From the IMG/VR virus record IMGVR_UViG_2541047861_000013: DNA of 20,787 bases; one strand, 5' to 3'. Each line of letters opens with the position of its first letter. The first letter of the stretch is position 1. The stretch is from a virus. Taxonomy: Duplodnaviria > Heunggongvirae > Uroviricota > Caudoviricetes. Positions 6,906 through 15,822 of the stretch are shown in pieces. A program made the position numbers and the translations under genes. The notes under the pieces are model-generated. The model did no database searches. It saw only the letters and a program-made list of their open reading frames with translations, and was not told where the DNA came from.

Positions 6906-6942
6906 TTGACATTTAACGCACGAATTATTACCTTTCAGGTAA
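6906..6942 (+). promoter_or_regulatory. Promoter-like TTGACA followed by a perfect TTACC-N5-GGTAA operator (6928-6942)
   Basis: TTGACA at 6906-6911; perfect 15-bp palindrome TTACCTTTCAGGTAA at 6928-6942. Which strand it serves (plus toward the tRNA, or minus toward the portal operon) is unresolved. Confidence 0.35.
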
Positions 6943-7264
6943 CCAAAGAATTCACTCCAGTTACTAATCTGACTGGCTTGTCGTTAAATTGAACAGGTGG
7001 GGTGAGCTTTTATTTTGAGCAGTACGGCGTATGGCACATGCGCCGATAGCGGTCTGGATACGTTTAAGGGGCACCCTCCCTTGCTCGGGCAAACGAACCA
7101 GGTAGCCGGAATGTGCAAGTCGAGCGGTTTTATTCCGCGCACGGGGATTCACCATCCCGGCGATTCGGTGTGACACCTCGGAAGAGACGAGGGTACAACG
7201 ATGAGAGCATTTATGGAGCCGCGACAAAGTGTGGCGCCTTAACAGGCTAAGTGCTCTCAGCGTT

Positions 7265-7341
7265 GTGGCATTAGCTCAGTTGGACAGAGCAACCGCCTTC
7301 TAAGCGGTTGGTCGCAGGTTCGAATCCTGCATGCCGCGCCA
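7265..7341 (+). tRNA. tRNA-Arg, anticodon UCU (argU-like), 3' CCA encoded
   Basis: Hand-folded cloverleaf: acceptor GTGGCAT/ATGCCGC (one G-U pair), D-stem GCTC/GAGC, anticodon stem ACCGC/GCGGT with loop CTTCTAA (anticodon TCT), T-stem GCAGG/CCTGC with TTCGAAT loop, discriminator G, CCA. Close to, but not identical with, my recollection of E. coli argU. Confidence 0.85.
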
Positions 7342-7539: not shown

Positions 7540-7962
7540 ATGAAAACAATTGATATGTTGGCTAAGTATCTAAATGAATGGCCATTAAAATATTCTCGTA
7601 TCGTTCAGGCTGAAGACTGCGTTTTTTATGGCGTTTTTGCTGGTAATGAAATGCATTACGAAGTAATTCAGAGTGAGGGACTGACCGGGTTAACTCTTAG
7701 CGAAGACCATGGTACTAGCGTTACGTTCCATGACTGGATAACAGCACAACGTTCTGAAATGGAAAAAGGCGATGTGTTTGATATTTCTCGCTCTGTTTGC
7801 GCTAAAGCAAAAAGTGATAATGATTACATGAGCGAACACTTATACAACATGAAGCTACAGTGCCTTGCCGAGGTGCTTGGTAAAAAAGCTATTGTCGATA
7901 AACAAGGCGCCATTAGCGAAGCAAAGGCAATAAATGCTGCATTTGATGAAATTATTTTCTAG
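7540..7962 (+). CDS. Hypothetical protein, 140 aa; AT-rich moron transcribed opposite to the late operon
   Basis: AAGGTG SD 5 nt before the ATG; a hand count of the first 120 nt gives roughly 35-40% GC, clearly below the flanking phage genes by eye; own downstream terminator; no transmembrane segment or recognisable catalytic motif. Confidence 0.6.
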   Translation: MKTIDMLAKYLNEWPLKYSRIVQAEDCVFYGVFAGNEMHYEVIQSEGLTGLTLSEDHGTSVTFHDWITAQRSEMEKGDVFDISRSVCAKAKSDNDYMSEHLYNMKLQCLAEVLGKKAIVDKQGAISEAKAINAAFDEIIF

Positions 7963-9528: not shown

Positions 9529-10118
9529 TGATTACCATCCTGACGTTCTTTGAGTCGCTTCCTGGCTGCCGCTATGCGATCAGCAATTGTCACATTCACA
9601 TTAACATCCAGTCGTTCTTTGAATGCGTTGACGTCGACGTGCTTACCAATCAGTTCGAGGTTCTTCACCTTGTCAGGCCATTTAATTTTTTTGAGGATTG
9701 TCTCTATCGAATCCTCGTTCATGTTCATGATGGTCGATGACAGATCAAAGCCGCTAAGCGTAGTGCGCCAGATTTTCGGCCACTCGCGGATTGGCTTAAG
9801 GCTCCCATCGTCGTTGAGGATATCAATCACGTCCATCTGGTCGATCTCCACCAGGCGCATGAGAACGTAATCAGCACTGACGCGCATTCGTTTGTTGCGC
9901 TCCTCCATCAACTCGGCAATCCGTTTCTGAATGCGTTCATCGCGCATCATGACACTGGCTTTAACTGCCGCTGTATTTGGGGAGAATCCTGCATTAATCG
10001 CAGCCTGAGTCTGGTTTTCAGGCGTTTTGATGTATGACTGGCAATAAGCCTCCTGCATTGCTGTTAGTGGCTTAAATTGCGTTGATTTGCGTTTATAGGC
10101 TTTAGGTTCAGCAGGCAT
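9525..10118 (-). CDS. Terminase small subunit (P27-like family)
   Basis: ...LTAMQEAYCQSYIKTPENQTQAAINAGFSPNTAAVKAS... matches the conserved small-terminase HTH region as I remember it. Start set at the ATG-ATG pair (10121/10118) preceded by GGTGG; the track's extended TTG start would read through the operator repeats. Confidence 0.75.
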   Translation of the reverse strand: MPAEPKAYKRKSTQFKPLTAMQEAYCQSYIKTPENQTQAAINAGFSPNTAAVKASVMMRDERIQKRIAELMEERNKRMRVSADYVLMRLVEIDQMDVIDILNDDGSLKPIREWPKIWRTTLSGFDLSSTIMNMNEDSIETILKKIKWPDKVKNLELIGKHVDVNAFKERLDVNVNVTIADRIAAARKRLKERQDGNQ

Positions 10119-10120
10119 CA

Positions 10121-10153
10121 TAACCACCGTGGTAATAGTTACCGTTGTGGTAA
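10121..10153 (-). promoter_or_regulatory. Tandem operator-like sites at the terminase small-subunit start
   Basis: TAACCACCGTGGTAA (10121-10135, one mismatch) and TTACCGTTGTGGTAA (10139-10153, perfect), 18 bp apart, just downstream of a minus-strand terminator. Confidence 0.45.
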
Positions 10154-10162
10154 TAGTAACAT

Positions 10163-10190
10163 GCAAAATAAAGCCGCCATAGTTGGCGGC
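10163..10190 (-). terminator. Intrinsic terminator separating the nin-like genes from the packaging operon
   Basis: GCCGCC-atagtt-GGCGGC followed on the minus strand by UUUAUUUUG. Confidence 0.45.
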
Positions 10191-10195
10191 AGTAT

Positions 10196-10408
10196 TCAAA
10201 GTCCATCAAATTCATCGTAAAAACTCTCGTCAAGATACCCTTCCCATTTACCGCGAATGAAAATTACATCCTCGCCGCAAGGGTGCTGACTGTCGATAAC
10301 TATATCCCTCCTGGCGCAACCATACTTATGCATGAGAAATTTAACCTCTTTCGGAAAATTTGCTGAGTTATCTCTCATATCTTCAAGGTCGTAGCGTATT
10401 TTTGGCAT
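10196..10408 (-). CDS. Hypothetical small protein (70 aa)
   Basis: ATG at 10408 (MPKIRYDLEDM...) preceded by GAAGGTG; the alternative GTG at 10429 lies inside the 12-bp palindrome. Confidence 0.4.
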   Translation of the reverse strand: MPKIRYDLEDMRDNSANFPKEVKFLMHKYGCARRDIVIDSQHPCGEDVIFIRGKWEGYLDESFYDEFDGL

Positions 10409-10417
10409 AACACCTTC

Positions 10418-10429
10418 GTGACATGTCAC
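10418..10429. repeat. 12-bp palindrome GTGACATGTCAC (second copy of the 7966-7979 core)
   Basis: Read directly; overlaps the stop codon of the 112-aa gene. Confidence 0.6.
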
Positions 10430-10764
10430 ACTATTAATTTCGTTTCATGCCAGCCTTTAGTCACCCAGCATTGTGAGTCACCATTACACGGACATGAATT
10501 AACTGGAACTCTCTCGCCGCACTTACCGCAACGTTTTCTACTGATCGATTTTATACGCCCGCGCACGCGTGCATCATCCTGGCGGATCAGTAACGCTATA
10601 TACTCACCAAATTCGTAAGGCGCACGCCCGGGGCGACGCGCGGCACAGTTACGCTCAAGCATTTCAATTTCCTGAGCATCAAGCACAATCTCCAGCTTAC
10701 GTACACCGGATGCAGCTTGTCTGGCTCTCTGAGCGGCTTTGCGCTCTGCTGCTGATTTAGCCAT
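10426..10764 (-). CDS. Hypothetical protein with C-terminal Cys-cluster (zinc-ribbon-like), 112 aa
   Basis: Ala/Arg-rich N-terminus; C-terminal CGKCG...CPC...C; ATG at 10764 with AAAGGTGA SD 6 nt upstream. Confidence 0.45.
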   Translation of the reverse strand: MAKSAAERKAAQRARQAASGVRKLEIVLDAQEIEMLERNCAARRPGRAPYEFGEYIALLIRQDDARVRGRIKSISRKRCGKCGERVPVNSCPCNGDSQCWVTKGWHETKLIV

Positions 10765-11038
10765 CAATATTCACCTTTATCGCGTAAACCTTTACCGGTT
10801 TATCGCCGAAGTGCGGATGTGTGATTGTCTTGATTTCATATCCGTCATACGGGACGTCAATTCTGCGGCTGGAATCGTCGCGCTTCGGATATCCCTTTGT
10901 GATAATCAGGCGGTCATGCTTACGGTTAACGAGGCGCTTTTTCCAGTAGTCATTAACAAGGCGATACTCTTCCGTTTTCTCTCCGCGAATCATGGCATCG
11001 AAGTATTCACCTTTAACGGCAAGTTGCAAGTTAGCCAC
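10757..11038 (-). CDS. Hypothetical protein, possibly ASCH/DUF3850-like (93 aa, GTG start)
   Basis: GTG at 11038 is preceded by a perfect AGGAGG SD at 6-nt spacing; KGEYFDAMIRGEKTEEYR resembles ASCH-type domains from memory. Confidence 0.4.
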   Translation of the reverse strand: MANLQLAVKGEYFDAMIRGEKTEEYRLVNDYWKKRLVNRKHDRLIITKGYPKRDDSSRRIDVPYDGYEIKTITHPHFGDKPVKVYAIKVNIDG

Positions 11039-11723
11039 GGTTAACCTCCTGCTTCGGTGCTGCTGGCATTTCACGCCAGTGCGTAACTGAGTGCGGATCC
11101 GGATATTCGGTGCCATCATCCCAGCGATTACCATTCCACATTGCAGACCACATCTCACCGTCTTCATACATGACCATTACCGGAATTAACTTATCCGGCA
11201 TTCGCTCACTACAGCTTATCCAACCATCCGGAGTTACCGGATAGTTGCCAGCCTGAACAGTAGGCATATCAGGACCTTTGCGAATCGCCCTGGCAAGATC
11301 GATTGGGTCGTCGTACAACCAGTCACCTGTTTGCGGATGATTGGCTTCTGCCAATTGTGCAGCCCACTCCAGGCCGTCTTTGTGTCCTTGCAGATAGTCC
11401 AGCGGTAACTCATCACTATTACTTACAGGTTCGGCTTCCAGCTCAACGCGCAGCTTCCCTACCGTTAGCGCAATATCCTCGTTCTCCTGGTCGCGGGATT
11501 TGATGTATTGCTGGTTTCTTTCCCGTTCATCCAGCAGCGCCAGCACGGTTTCTGGTCCGGTCAGAAATTTGAAGGCGTTGAGCGCATCAATATCCACACC
11601 GTAATCCTTAAGTTCCTGTTCACTTAACAAATCATCATCAACTGGCAACATTAACAGGCGTTCCATTGCTGGAATTGCACGTTCCGCCACCTCACGCAGT
11701 GCCTGGTAATTAATTTCGCTCAC
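11031..11723 (-). CDS. Ead/Ea22-like N-terminus fused to a DUF551-like C-terminus (230 aa)
   Basis: Starts MSEINYQALREVAERA (typical Ea22-like opening); C-terminal WISCSERMP...THWREMP resembles DUF551; GTG start with AAGGAGG SD. Confidence 0.5.
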   Translation of the reverse strand: MSEINYQALREVAERAIPAMERLLMLPVDDDLLSEQELKDYGVDIDALNAFKFLTGPETVLALLDERERNQQYIKSRDQENEDIALTVGKLRVELEAEPVSNSDELPLDYLQGHKDGLEWAAQLAEANHPQTGDWLYDDPIDLARAIRKGPDMPTVQAGNYPVTPDGWISCSERMPDKLIPVMVMYEDGEMWSAMWNGNRWDDGTEYPDPHSVTHWREMPAAPKQEVNRG

Positions 11724-12238
11724 TGATTGCCTCCTTTGCGAAGCTGGGCAGCAAAGTCAACTAACCACTCAGTCATTTCAACCTTCCCTACCAGGTCTGA
11801 ACCAGGGTGCATACAGCAATCACTCTGCGCCGCTTTGAAATCCTTATACTCATATTCTTGGGCCACCAGATTTTTTGCAGCTTCTATAGCAGCATCCACG
11901 CCCTGTGCCCGCAGTTCCGACAGGAAAGCATCGGTGGCTGGCATATTTCCTGTTGCCTTCATGGCCTCCAAAATAACCAGAACGCCATCTCTCCCAACCT
12001 CCTCGCAAATAACCTCGGTGTTGTCGCCAACAACATCGCAGAATGCCTGAACTGCTTTACGAGCAAGTGAATTCTCCGCCGCCAGCGCATTAGCACGCAC
12101 CAGTTGCACTTCCAGTTGCGTTGCCAAATCGCTGATCAGCTTTGCCACACTGCGCATATCAACGGCACCACATTCTGCTTTCAGTTCCGAAGCCATCTCA
12201 TGCCCGGAGGAAACTAACCCTTTGATATTACTTTCCAT
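11720..12238 (-). CDS. Hypothetical protein (172 aa)
   Basis: ORF with GAGG SD; acidic, helical-looking; no motif recognised. Confidence 0.45.
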   Translation of the reverse strand: MESNIKGLVSSGHEMASELKAECGAVDMRSVAKLISDLATQLEVQLVRANALAAENSLARKAVQAFCDVVGDNTEVICEEVGRDGVLVILEAMKATGNMPATDAFLSELRAQGVDAAIEAAKNLVAQEYEYKDFKAAQSDCCMHPGSDLVGKVEMTEWLVDFAAQLRKGGNQ

Positions 12239-12299
12239 CTTTACCCTCGCTTATCCACATAACTTATTGATTACATTGATAACTAAAAAGATCGTCGAT

Positions 12300-12644
12300 T
12301 CAGAACTCTTCGATGTTCCAGCCACCACCTGCTTTCTTTGGCTTAACCGTTACCCCGATGATTCGGAACGGATACTGATCTGCGGCGACTTTGGTTTTCA
12401 CCCTGGCGTCGTCGGTCCAGAAACCTTTCACTTCGTGCAGTTCCATCTCGCCGGTGGCGAGCATCACAGCGAAATCTGGCGTATAGAACGTGTTGTCAGC
12501 TAACCGCAGCTTGATACCCTCGAATCGATACCAGGCGATTTCCCCTGCACGTTTACGCAGCTCAAGGTGCTGGCAATACGCAGATTCTGTTTTGTTCATC
12601 TGGCCTGTTTTGAGTCGACCAAGAGCCTGTATCTGTTTTCTCAT
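12300..12644 (-). CDS. DUF1064-like putative PD-(D/E)XK nuclease (114 aa)
   Basis: ...YTPDFAV...ELHEVKG... gives a D...E.K signature typical of small resolvase-like nucleases in phage nin regions. Confidence 0.55.
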   Translation of the reverse strand: MRKQIQALGRLKTGQMNKTESAYCQHLELRKRAGEIAWYRFEGIKLRLADNTFYTPDFAVMLATGEMELHEVKGFWTDDARVKTKVAADQYPFRIIGVTVKPKKAGGGWNIEEF

Positions 12645-12647
12645 GAT

Positions 12648-12724
12648 TTACCCCTGAGGTAATTAAAAACCACATAAGACACGAAATCAATAGAGTTTAG
12701 AATATTTTGTTACCCAGCAGGTAA
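12648..12724 (-). promoter_or_regulatory. Promoter flanked by two perfect operator sites, driving the nin-like genes
   Basis: Minus-strand -35 TTGATT (plus 12685-12690), 17-bp spacer, -10 TTTAAT (12662-12667). TTACCCAGCAGGTAA (12710-12724) lies upstream of the -35; TTACCCCTGAGGTAA (12648-12662) lies between the -10 and the start codon. Confidence 0.5.
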
Positions 12725-12761
12725 TTATCAAGACGTAAAAAAATGCGCTATCGCGCTGGTA

Positions 12762-13544
12762 TTACTTGATAAATCCTGCCGCCTTTCCCCGCCTGTATTC
12801 CTCCATCAGCCACTGCGCCGGTGTTATTCCCCCTAGGGTGGCGGCGTTAGGCATGCACCCGAAACTTCGCCCTGGTGGATGGTAAACGTCTCTCCCTGTG
12901 TCCGGAGGCGTACTCATTGGTTCTGGCTTTGCCTGTATGCTGATCACCGGATCGGGTATCTGCTGTCCGGAAGCCACCTTTTTCGCCCAATCATCGAGCA
13001 GCCTGCGCGCGTGTTTCTCAACCTCAATCTCGCTAAGCTGGCGCTGATACATTGCACGGCGGGTATCACATACGACCCAGTACATAACCGGATGTCGCCA
13101 CGGGAATCTTTCGGGACCACCAGGATATAAACTTTTTTCCTTGCTGTACCGGTGAAACTCCGCCATCACATCGTCAATGGTGACGCCAAGAACCATCTTG
13201 CTGTCTTTGCACCACTTGATGAATTGCCCAGGCGACGGCCAGAACGGAGATTCACTGGCGCGGGCGTGGCGCATACCAGCGTTAACCTGTTCCATTGTTG
13301 TGATCCCATTCTCCAGAAACGCAAGCATCCATTGTTTTCGAAATTCGTTTAGCTTTCCTTGCTCGCTGATAGCAGCGATGCTGCCTGGAAATGCAGCCTG
13401 TAACTGGACAAACATTTCGTTGAAAATTCTTGCAACCTGCTCCTTCTTTGCCCTTTCATCGTCAGCAGAAGCAACCGCCGTCGAGTGGTCATGCCCACCA
13501 CGAAAGCGATCGTACTCATTAAGAAGTTCTGGAGTTGATTTCAT
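12762..13544 (-). CDS. Lambda P-like replication protein (DnaB helicase loader)
   Basis: WMLAFLENGITTMEQVNAGMRHARASESPFWPSPGQFIKWC is near-identical to the lambda P segment as I recall it (WVLAFRENGITTMEQVNAGMRVARRQNRPFLPSPGQFVAWC); start set at the ATG (MKSTPELL) with GAGGTG SD. Confidence 0.75.
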   Translation of the reverse strand: MKSTPELLNEYDRFRGGHDHSTAVASADDERAKKEQVARIFNEMFVQLQAAFPGSIAAISEQGKLNEFRKQWMLAFLENGITTMEQVNAGMRHARASESPFWPSPGQFIKWCKDSKMVLGVTIDDVMAEFHRYSKEKSLYPGGPERFPWRHPVMYWVVCDTRRAMYQRQLSEIEVEKHARRLLDDWAKKVASGQQIPDPVISIQAKPEPMSTPPDTGRDVYHPPGRSFGCMPNAATLGGITPAQWLMEEYRRGKAAGFIK

Positions 13545-14352
13545 CCCACACCTCATCTATCCAGTCAGTGTTATGCCAGTCAAGGCTCTTTCTGACTTCA
13601 CCTGATTTCTGTCTACAGAACTGGATGCGCCTTGCCAGCTTCTGCTCCCACTGTGCCTGATGGTATGCCTTACCCTCAGCCATCCAGTAAATTCTGAACT
13701 CTGCAAGTTCCTGTGCCGTTGGCAGACTGTCCAGGTAGATTCCCTGCAATGAGCTTTTCCGAAGAAAGTCATCTGATGGCTGCCATTGTTCATGCATGAC
13801 AAATTTACCTAATTGCCCTGGCCCACCAGGAGGAACAAAGTTATTCATCACGGCGTTGTTTGCGCCGGGGTCATGAGGAACAGAATCCCCGGTTTTTGTC
13901 CTGCTCTCCCTCTCTTGGTTAAATGACTGGTTATATGACTGGTTCTGGATCCCGTTTTTGGGATCATTCAACATCCCGTTTTTGGGATCATTCAACATCC
14001 CGTTTTTGGGTATATTCCCGTTTTCGGTAACATTACCGTTTTCGGGTTCATTGCCCCCCTCCCGGTTGCCTTTAATGTTCCCGTTTTTGGTTATATTAAG
14101 AGAGAAAACCCGCACTCTTTTTGTCGCTCCCTTTCTCTCTCCGGTATCTGAAATAAGCCCCATTTTCATGAGCGATATAAGCCCGGCCTGCACGGTTTTT
14201 TTATTCAGGCAAGTGTCTTTAACGAGGCGTTCTATGCTGGGGTAGCAGAGGTTATATTCATCGGCTCTGTCAGCCATCGAGAGCAGTATGAGCTTTAATG
14301 ATGAGCTACCTGGATCTGTCTCCCAGGCCCAATCTGTTGCATGTCTGCTCAT
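13519..14352 (-). CDS. Lambda O-like replication initiator with origin iterons inside the gene
   Basis: Sits upstream of and overlapping the P-like gene; central Asn/Gly-rich repeats (NGMLNDPKNGMLNDPKNG) are encoded by the DNA iterons. Confidence 0.55.
   Translation of the reverse strand: MSRHATDWAWETDPGSSSLKLILLSMADRADEYNLCYPSIERLVKDTCLNKKTVQAGLISLMKMGLISDTGERKGATKRVRVFSLNITKNGNIKGNREGGNEPENGNVTENGNIPKNGMLNDPKNGMLNDPKNGIQNQSYNQSFNQERESRTKTGDSVPHDPGANNAVMNNFVPPGGPGQLGKFVMHEQWQPSDDFLRKSSLQGIYLDSLPTAQELAEFRIYWMAEGKAYHQAQWEQKLARRIQFCRQKSGEVRKSLDWHNTDWIDEVWDEINSRTS
13951..14091. repeat. Origin iterons: CCCGTTTTTGGG cores
   Basis: Three perfect copies at 24-bp spacing (13951, 13975, 13999) plus degenerate copies at 14017, 14035 and 14080, all within the O-like ORF. 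Confidence 0.6.
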
Positions 14353-14367
14353 GATTAATCTCCGCTA

Positions 14368-14568
14368 TCAGCTTGAGTGTTGTGGGGAGGAATTAATCAT
14401 GATCTGCTTAATCTCTGCCCTGATGCGACGGTTTGATTCCATGGTGCACTCAACACAGTGTCCGTTGTAAACCCAGCGTTCACTGTCATGTCCGTGCTTA
14501 CATGGTTTTCCGGTGTAGTAGCGTTTAAGTCCGCGCTTTGCGGCATCAATACGTGTAATGATTTCCAT
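14368..14568 (-). CDS. Small Cys/His-cluster protein (66 aa) in the cII-equivalent position
   Basis: MEIITRI...KPCKHGHDSERWVYNGHCVEC...; ATG at 14568 with AGGG SD; the longer track ORF (to 14631) has no SD. Confidence 0.4.
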   Translation of the reverse strand: MEIITRIDAAKRGLKRYYTGKPCKHGHDSERWVYNGHCVECTMESNRRIRAEIKQIMINSSPQHSS

Positions 14569-14602
14569 GGTAAGCCCTGTTATTAGTATTGGGATTACGG
14601 TT

Positions 14603-14663
14603 ATTTTGTGCTGACACAAAAAAAAGATCAACCAGATTTGGTTTTTTATTACCTTTGAGGTAC
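14603..14663 (-). promoter_or_regulatory. Promoter with upstream operator-like site between cro and the replication genes
   Basis: Minus-strand -35 TTGATC (plus 14626-14631), 17-bp spacer, -10 CAAAAT (14603-14608); TTACCTTTGAGGTAC (14649-14663, one mismatch) 18 bp upstream of the -35. Confidence 0.35.
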
Positions 14664-14985: not shown

Positions 14986-15048
14986 TCACCCATAAGGTAA
15001 CAAAAATCAAGGATAGTTACCTATGAGGTGCATTTACCTGTTGGGTAA
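14986..15048. promoter_or_regulatory. Right-operator-like region with three TTACC-N5-GGTAA-type sites between the Cro-like and repressor genes
   Basis: TCACCCATAAGGTAA (14986-15000), TTACCTATGAGGTGC (15017-15031), TTACCTGTTGGGTAA (15034-15048, perfect); the last two are 17 bp apart. Confidence 0.6.
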
Positions 15049-15745: not shown

Positions 15746-15822
15746 TTACCTTATGGGTAATTTTTTTAACTCATATCTATTGACATCAAACCAGATACGC
15801 ATAATCATTACCTCAACGGTAA
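15746..15822 (+). promoter_or_regulatory. Left-promoter-like region: TTGACA promoter flanked by two perfect operator sites
   Basis: TTACCTTATGGGTAA (15746-15760), -35 TTGACA (15780-15785), TTACCTCAACGGTAA (15808-15822); the -10 is ambiguous (CATAAT at 14-bp spacing or TAATCA at 16 bp). Confidence 0.55.

Follow-up and report, generated by a model that had tools for sequence, protein, structure and literature searches.

The 20,787-nucleotide stretch analysed here (IMG/VR virus record IMGVR_UViG_2541047861_000013, below referred to as the window) is a Uetakevirus prophage of the epsilon15/phiV10-like podovirus type, with a backbone 97-98% identical to those of PAS61, phiv142-3, HEMP4, ZX5, TL-2011b and phiV10. 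Between its lambda-P-like helicase loader gene and its small terminase gene lie six small, tightly packed minus-strand genes (12644-10196), here called g1 to g6, which very probably form a post-replication accessory operon controlled by the prophage repressor and composed of two conserved anchor genes with an exchangeable middle. The gene structure, the family memberships, the motif and geometry of the operators, and the pattern of conservation were established directly. The block combines known gene families in a new way and does not amount to a system of a new kind.

Organization of the six-gene block

The gene order on the minus strand runs from a Cro-like gene through a DnaT/HTH replication initiator, the P-like loader and g1-g6 to the small and large terminase genes, in agreement with the initial annotation of this DNA, made from the sequence alone, which had placed six open reading frames (ORFs) between the replication and packaging modules. 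Each of the six matches a PHROG family at E <= 1e-39 and they are thus real genes rather than chance ORFs. The genes are the following:

12644-12300, minus strand: g1, DUF1064 PD-(D/E)XK nuclease, 114 amino acids (Pfam DUF1064, PF06356, 31 bits against a cut-off of 24.7)
12238-11720, minus strand: g2, Eae-like protein, 172 amino acids, acidic (pI 4.6; phrog_492, E = 7e-55)
11723-11031, minus strand: g3, Ea22 N-terminus and coiled coil with a DUF551 C-terminal domain, 230 amino acids, GTG start (Pfam)
11038-10757, minus strand: g4, probable ASCH-domain protein, 93 amino acids, GTG start 6 nucleotides after AGGAGG (phrog_625, E = 1e-48)
10764-10426, minus strand: g5, basic protein of the epsilon15 gp49/phiV10 gp55/N15 gp46 family, 112 amino acids (phrog_536, "transcriptional regulator", E = 1e-54)
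10408-10196, minus strand: g6, homologue of T4 UvsY.-1, 70 amino acids, acidic (phrog_1541, E = 2e-39)

Start and stop codons abut or overlap at GTGA (g2/g3), GTGGCTAA (g3/g4) and ATGGCTAA (g4/g5). An NCBIfam search of the six proteins returned nothing significant, and an Rfam scan found no RNA family within the block, its sole hit being a tRNA elsewhere in the window. The earlier remark that most of these proteins lack an assigned function was borne out, with two of its labels now replaced: the "172-aa unknown" (g2) belongs to the Eae-like family, and the "70-aa unknown" (g6) to that of T4 UvsY.-1.

Two conserved anchors and an exchangeable middle

The block was compared with nine annotated relatives and with 59 IMG/VR contigs carrying a complete P-to-small-terminase interval. 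A homologue of g1 was found in 57 of the 59 contigs, and g5 in all of them, by construction of the sample; g5 is also present in all Uetakevirus relatives, being 79-100% identical to its counterparts in the annotated ones. The remaining genes come and go. An Eae-like second gene occurs in 48 of the 59 contigs, reaching at least 80% identity to g2 in only two (34-94% identity across the relatives compared), g4 is found in 38 and g6 in 18, and no relative carries a close full-length g3. Within the genus, therefore, g1 and g5 are the only conserved members of the block; the comparison that the initial annotation had recommended separates these two from four variable genes, and the six are not all conserved core genes.

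The interval as a whole is similarly fluid, with 52 different lengths among the 59 relatives (2.4-5.1 kb), the present copy being among the shortest (about 2.6 kb versus a median of 3.7 kb), and the Eae, Ea22 and DUF551 ORFs of the slot fall into 86 clusters at 70% identity. The DNA of g3 and g4 is about 92-96% identical to that of Stx1a-converting phages, of CUS-3 (P22-like) and of RCS47 (P1-like). The junction (A/G)TGGCTAA in front of g5 is kept whatever gene precedes it, which points to exchange at gene boundaries.

About one complete E. coli genome in ten carries an epsilon15-like prophage. The distribution of the block and its members among 5426 such genomes was as follows:

g5: 612 genomes
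g1: 530 genomes
g4: 1537 genomes, many copies lying in other prophage types and plasmids
g6: 103 genomes
at least 80% of a 2.7-kb query spanning the block (10100-12800): 20 genomes

No phage record covered 80% of the block in a search of phage records.

Operators and the promoter of the block

Ten copies of the palindrome TTACC-N5-GGTAA lie in the window, where chance alone would give 0.3. They are found at PR, at PL, after the terminator of the cro-like gene, twice upstream of g1, twice upstream of the small terminase gene and upstream of the portal operon (besides the g1 pair, at 6928-6942, 10121-10153, 14649-14663, 14986-15048 and 15746-15822). The region in front of g1 contains the following elements, upstream to downstream:

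12737-12756, minus strand: weak intrinsic terminator after the P-like loader gene (4-bp GCGC stem, GAUA loop, run of seven U)
12710-12724: distal operator, TTACCTGCTGGGTAA on the transcribed strand, beginning 34 nucleotides upstream of the -35 element
12685-12690, minus strand: -35 element TTGATT, aligned with the PL -35 TTGACA
12662-12667, minus strand: -10 element TTTAAT, read from the sequence, after a 17-nucleotide spacer; the final T is shared with the proximal operator, as its first base
12648-12662: proximal operator, TTACCTCAGGGGTAA, overlapping the region of the transcription start and the ribosome-binding site of g1

The ATG of g1 follows at 12644, just past the proximal operator. 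The arrangement is that of PL: the two regions align column by column, with the distal operator 34 nucleotides before the -35 element in both, the same junction of -10 element and operator (AATCAT|TACC at PL) and the same distance of 62 bp between operator centres (the PL pair lies at 15746 and 15808). The idea that the genes have a promoter of their own flanked by operators, already put forward in the initial annotation, is thus upheld by this geometry. All 57 IMG/VR relatives compared retain the pair at 62 bp, and their distal site shows 19 different central spacers with intact half-sites, a combination that is the signature expected of a protein-binding site. CTATTGA is invariant across ten aligned regulatory regions, and both this motif and its spacing are unchanged across genera, even in epsilon15, where the downstream gene differs.

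The assignment of these sites to the repressor is based on the epsilon15 RefSeq record and on conservation. That record annotates sites of the same type as protein_bind features for the repressor or lysogeny, preceding the terminase, portal and tail-fibre genes and also the gene that fills the g1 slot. The repressor of the window is a full-length homologue of SPC32H Rep (PDB 5d50, E = 4e-42), a tetramer that binds palindromic sites (PMC9638917). The prophage repressor thus seems to control late operons directly and at several points; such multi-site control is already annotated for the genus.

The palindromes upstream of g1 might instead lack an active promoter, the block being expressed by read-through from PR only and the sites serving as Rep roadblocks or looping anchors. 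The terminator after P is indeed weak (fold of -8.4 kcal/mol, z = -1.55); its sequence is conserved in all relatives aligned, and phiV10 has a terminator annotated at the equivalent position. The -10 element is imperfect and does not appear in the list of a consensus scan, and a single site of the Rep type, with no promoter called there, follows the terminator of the cro-like gene at 14649. Nevertheless, the -35 element, the -10 element and both operators are in register with the PL promoter, CTATTGA and its spacing persist across genera irrespective of the downstream gene, and the operator occupies an identical position relative to the -10 element at the PL, block and late promoters. Expression by read-through only is accordingly regarded as very unlikely.

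In the 61-nucleotide gap between g1 and g2, AATCAATAAGTTA (12260-12272, minus strand) fits the IHF consensus WATCAANNNNTTR, and the epsilon15 record has an IHF site annotated at the equivalent relative position.

The boundary with the late operon

A strong terminator closes the block, and the control region of the terminase genes comes directly after it:

10165-10190, minus strand: strong intrinsic terminator with a 7-bp G+C-rich stem and a U-rich tail, conserved in relatives
10153-10161, minus strand: late (terminase) promoter with an extended -10 element, TGtTACTAT, and no recognisable -35 element
10139-10153 and 10121-10135: two operator-type palindromes just upstream of the start codon of the small terminase gene at 10118

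The terminator has a predicted fold of -16.2 kcal/mol (z = -4.4), a stability equalled by none of 200 shuffled sequences. The last base of the late extended -10 element is the first base of an operator, an overlap also seen at PL and the block promoter, and the motif TGnTACTAT abutting an operator, with two sites, is kept in 79 of 79 relatives. Epsilon15 has a repressor site annotated at the same boundary.

The first anchor: a DUF1064 nuclease

The reading of g1 as a DUF1064-like PD-(D/E)XK nuclease, proposed beforehand, is upheld by the Pfam score and by a catalytic motif, E...PD...(D/E)xK, that is intact in the translation (E20, P56-D57, E71-V72-K73). The protein also matches phrog_190, labelled "Holliday junction resolvase" (E = 7e-43), and is weakly similar to T7 endonuclease I, in agreement with the published assignment of DUF1064 to the PD-(D/E)XK superfamily near that enzyme (Kosinski et al., PMC1189080). 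When g1, g3, g4 and g5 were searched by sequence in the PDB, all matches fell below threshold. In epsilon15 this promoter and start codon serve a RuvC-type resolvase gene in place of g1, and SPN1S, with an immunity region of the epsilon15 type, carries DUF1064. The replacement of one protein by the other in a single slot indirectly supports a junction-resolving role, and g1 is probably a structure-specific endonuclease of the Holliday-junction type. A RecE/RecT module is found in the left operon of relatives.

The second anchor: a small zinc-ribbon protein

The C-terminal half of g5 is a Cys4 zinc ribbon, and the zinc-ribbon label given to it earlier agrees with a cysteine cluster (C79/C82/C91/C93/C99) conserved across sets of homologues: 56 diverse homologues all share C79 and C82, and nearly all share C99, with C91 and C93 conserved in close relatives. 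The N-terminal half is weakly ribbon-helix-helix-like, with faint matches to the YbfE-type family NF008671 (E = 0.045) and, in five of the 56 members, to RHH_5, RepB-RCR_reg and RHH_1. The family is small (156 clusters among 1.84 billion representative proteins), and its members occur in every Uetakevirus as well as in N15 (gp46), Vibrio phages and, following gpA, P2-like Yersinia phages. An AlphaFold model built on a 65-sequence alignment (predicted local distance difference test, pLDDT, 66) places helices at residues 30-42 and 52-67 after an extended segment, and Foldseek searches of the PDB with the g5 and g6 models gave nothing below E = 0.7. On these grounds g5 is predicted to be a conserved small zinc-ribbon regulator. 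At 10409-10432 lies a perfect 12-bp palindrome, GTGACATGTCAC, which overlaps the g5 stop codon and is kept with or without g6.

If g5 activated the late genes, the block would be a functional equivalent of lambda nin-Q, a set of delayed-early genes closed by the turn to late transcription. In favour of this, no conserved gene stands between g5 and the late operon in any Uetakevirus, g5 carries the "transcriptional regulator" label in RefSeq as well as in PHROG, no Q-like protein was seen in the window, and the top three matches of the family profile in the PDB are the RNA-polymerase-binding proteins TraR and YbiI (E about 0.03; 53% in hhalign). However, all likeness to known regulators is below significance. 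The cysteine pattern differs from that of TraR and YbiI (CxxC-N17-CxxC in DksA/TraR), with the fourth cysteine out of the alignment, and none of the 56 family members matches zf-dskA_traR. The P2-like Yersinia phage homologue, after gpA, is separated from the portal gene by about 1.8 kb and several genes. In N15 the homologue, gp46, comes downstream of gp40, which is annotated as the late transcription activator of N15 itself, and the late promoter of Uetakeviruses has its own Rep operators in all 79 relatives, so that derepression alone could switch the late operon on. The notion that g5 is necessarily a late activator was set aside on these last two grounds, and such a role is considered quite improbable.

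The exchangeable genes

More than 6000 relatives of g2 are named "eae-like domain protein" by NCBI, and the homologue search returned close relatives only. The C-terminal part of g2 is found elsewhere fused to an Ea22 N-terminus (phrog_368), so that g2 looks like an interchangeable Ea22 C-terminal domain. The g2 protein is 100% identical to hypothetical protein G873_02636 of E. coli HVH 222.

For g3, the fusion of Ea22-like and DUF551 domains recognised in the initial annotation is clear in Pfam (Ead_Ea22, 100.5 bits, E = 1.5e-28; DUF551, 64.9 bits, E = 1.2e-17). This is the architecture of the Ea22_V2 variant of Stx phages, an Ea22 N-terminus and coiled coil followed by a DUF551 C-terminal domain; the Ea22 proteins of lambda and P27 are tetrameric and pro-lysogenic (PMC10834534). 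The perfect Shine-Dalgarno sequence and GTG start previously described for g4 do exist, and, as an addition to that annotation, the GTG of g3 likewise follows a perfect AGGAGG. The ASCH-like nature of g4 stands in part: the protein carries the ASCH signature GxKxxExR (PMC6803910) as GEKTEEYR at residues 20-27, and proteins 89-91% identical to it are named "ASCH domain-containing" by RefSeq, but the Pfam ASCH score (PF04266) is below the cut-off (15.4 versus 21.2 bits, E = 0.032) and covers residues 6-48 only, and no match was obtained for g4 in NCBIfam or by sequence in the PDB. An ASCH-domain protein is the probable identity of g4, as judged from the motif and the names of its relatives.

The last gene, g6, has a low G+C content (41%) and is 46% identical to T4 UvsY.-1 over nearly its full length (about 46-56% to the T-even proteins), the T4 protein being itself a member of phrog_1541. 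Both share the pattern FLM.K...R.DI...HPCGEDV...G..GY.DE.FY. The homologue search returned at least seven proteins, an AlphaFold model from six sequences reached a pLDDT of 67, and a search of a phage collection found g6 elsewhere only in the unannotated record PH444. The present copy has g6 as an insertion separating g5 from the terminator at 10165-10190. Relatives lacking it keep its last 20 or so nucleotides (…DEFDGF and the stop codon) as a remnant, which indicates that g6 was lost there by internal deletion. Knock-down of T4 uvsY.-1 carries no fitness cost in a laboratory host (PMC11879866, supplement). Within Uetakevirus, g6 is a dispensable cargo gene.

Cargo of the slot in relatives and the question of defence

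A survey of 113 representative ORFs from the same slot of the 59 relatives revealed, besides many DUF551 and Ea22 proteins, two clusters of Lar (restriction-alleviation) proteins, a Dam methylase and dATP/dGTP pyrophosphohydrolase domains, as well as NinB, NinX, an HNH endonuclease and several DUF families. None of the six block proteins matched a PADLOC component model (E <= 1e-3), and the slot cargo of the relatives gave single-domain methylase and HNH matches only, without complete systems. Two suggestions of the initial annotation were therefore only partly sustained. Its view of the region as a home for defence and anti-defence genes fits the variability of the slot and the Lar and orphan Dam genes of relatives, but not the PADLOC result for the present copy. 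Its comparison with a nin region fits the NinB and NinX genes of relatives, but the content here is ea-like (Eae, Ea22, DUF551, ASCH), no Q-type antiterminator follows, and searches of Pfam, PHROG and NCBIfam linked none of the six proteins to a Nin family or to Q.

The idea of anti-defence cargo in the slot is plausible. A stronger form of it, in which the block is mainly a defence or anti-defence island and g2, g3, g4 and/or g6 neutralise host immunity or exclude other phages, appears unlikely. The hypervariable slot, the Lar, orphan Dam and pyrophosphohydrolase-domain proteins of relatives and the character of g6 argue for it, the latter being small, acidic, low in G+C, shared with T-even phages and dispensable in Uetakevirus, with a T4 counterpart whose knock-down is free of cost in a laboratory host (PMC11879866, supplement), a pattern typical of genes needed only in certain hosts. 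Against it stand the PADLOC results, the two conserved anchors with their likely roles in DNA processing and regulation, and the only studied relative of g3, lambda Ea22, which affects the lysis-lysogeny balance and is not known to be linked to immunity (PMC10834534).

In epsilon15, gp46 (7036-7254 of the epsilon15 stretch compared), encoded in the equivalent block, is described as "released from the phage upon host infection", and by analogy at least one cargo protein of the region may be packaged in virions. No counterpart of gp46 was recognised among the six genes.

Proposed mode of action

An accessory operon under repressor control would operate as follows. In the lysogen, the SPC32H Rep homologue would occupy the two operators 62 bp apart that bracket the sigma-70 promoter upstream of g1. 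Once Rep is inactivated, g1-g6 would be transcribed into a single mRNA of about 2.5 kb, with coupled translation of its genes, which would stop at the strong terminator before the late operon with its own Rep operators. The product of g1 would most likely cut branched replication and recombination intermediates before packaging, the job of lambda Rap/NinG or of the RuvC-type resolvase in the epsilon15 slot, and g5 would be the other conserved anchor, acting as a small zinc-ribbon regulator. The other four genes (g2, g3, g4 and g6) would be interchangeable cargo, recombined at gene boundaries with lambdoid, P22-like, P1-like and T-even phages and probably modulating the host or the lysis-lysogeny balance rather than serving core phage functions. 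Within this scheme, the binding of Rep, the single transcript and all biochemical roles are predictions.

Several observations weigh against it. The binding of Rep to the palindromes upstream of g1 is annotated or predicted; position 2 of the -10 element TTTAAT is not the A usually found there, and the promoter scan lists TTGATA-16-CAAAAT (12731-12704, with the distal operator in its spacer) in place of TTGATT/TTTAAT. The weakness of the terminator after P means that read-through from PR may contribute to expression of the block. The resolvase role of DUF1064 proteins rests on family prediction (PMC1189080), the PHROG label and positional replacement, and the models of g5 and g6 are of low confidence, with no similar folds.

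Comparison with known phage regions

The closest counterpart is the epsilon15 gp43-gp49/phiV10 p45-p55 region, which has the same position, the same head (terminator, then operator, promoter and operator), a terminator at its tail, the same last conserved gene of the g5 type (79-98% identity), an Eae-like second gene and Ea22, DUF551 and ASCH modules. The present copy differs in being among the shortest and in carrying g6, and epsilon15 has a RuvC-type resolvase for DUF1064.

The nin region of lambda encodes Rap/NinG, a junction-resolving nuclease. It resembles the block in following a P-type loader gene and in consisting of small, overlapping and largely dispensable genes that include a nuclease of the junction-resolving type. 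Unlike lambda nin, which is expressed by N-dependent read-through from PR, the block appears to have its own repressor-controlled promoter with PL geometry; it contains no nin homologue, is not followed by Q, and ends at a terminator before a repressor-controlled late promoter. The exo-xis ("ea") region of lambdoid phages shares the domain architecture of g3 (Ea22_V2), DNA about 92% identical to g3 and g4 in Stx1a-converting phages, and the names Eae, Ead and Eaa, which recur in relatives. However, the lambdoid genes belong to the leftward PL operon between exo and xis, whereas here they lie in the rightward arm after the replication genes. The pro-lysogenic effect was shown for lambda Ea22; g3 is likened to Ea22_V2 by its architecture.

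The Rep-Ant switch of SPC32H and epsilon15 is matched by the full-length Rep homologue and by operator half-sites identical to the annotated epsilon15 repressor sites, with the difference that Rep binding at the pair upstream of g1 is predicted here. Finally, g6 differs from T4 UvsY.-1 in its setting, at the end of an early operon beside terminase in a temperate podovirus; the T4 gene lies beside uvsY.

Neighbouring features

Upstream of the block, the replication genes are arranged as follows:

14352-13519, minus strand: DnaT/HTH replication initiator, after the Cro-like gene
13556-12762, minus strand: lambda-P-like helicase loader, directly before the six-gene block

Inside the initiator gene, iteron-like tandem repeats (13916-14052; 24-bp units of 100% identity together with 12- and 18-bp units) encode N/G-rich repeats of the initiator protein and, by analogy with lambda O, probably serve as the origin of phage replication. 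Between the cro-like gene and the initiator lies a small gene of the epsilon15 gp40 type (14368-14631, minus strand; phrog_1081), preceded by a terminator and a single operator-type site, whose product shows a C-x-H-G-H...C-x-x-C pattern and a weak match to endonuclease VII. Between the large terminase gene and the portal operon, a tRNA-Arg (anticodon TCT; 7265-7341, plus strand) and a 140-amino-acid ORF (7540-7962, plus strand; phrog_4846) stand on the opposite strand and look like a moron-like insertion, the same site being occupied in relatives by other genes, encoding a "Gp49 family" protein or other hypothetical proteins.

Significance

The current understanding of these phages stands. 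Existing annotation of the genus already covers the gene families, the mosaic structure and repressor control at multiple sites. Three points are mildly interesting: the exchange of DUF1064 and RuvC-type proteins, the small g5 family, and the occurrence in a temperate phage of g6, a T-even-type gene. The first of these, a swap at one start codon, constitutes useful indirect evidence on the function of DUF1064. The UvsY.-1 family is otherwise almost confined to T-even lytic phages. That g6 is a portable factor for counter-defence or host takeover, expressed upon derepression, or that g5 acts on RNA polymerase in a TraR-like manner rather than as a DNA-binding regulator, is a speculative prospect with a low probability; if true, either would assign a function to an orphan family that is widespread. 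The block offers a sharply bounded, clear case of an exchangeable cargo bay with two anchor genes under what appears to be direct repressor control, and its slot is a defined place in which to seek host-modulating or anti-defence genes, the best candidates being g6 and the g5 family.

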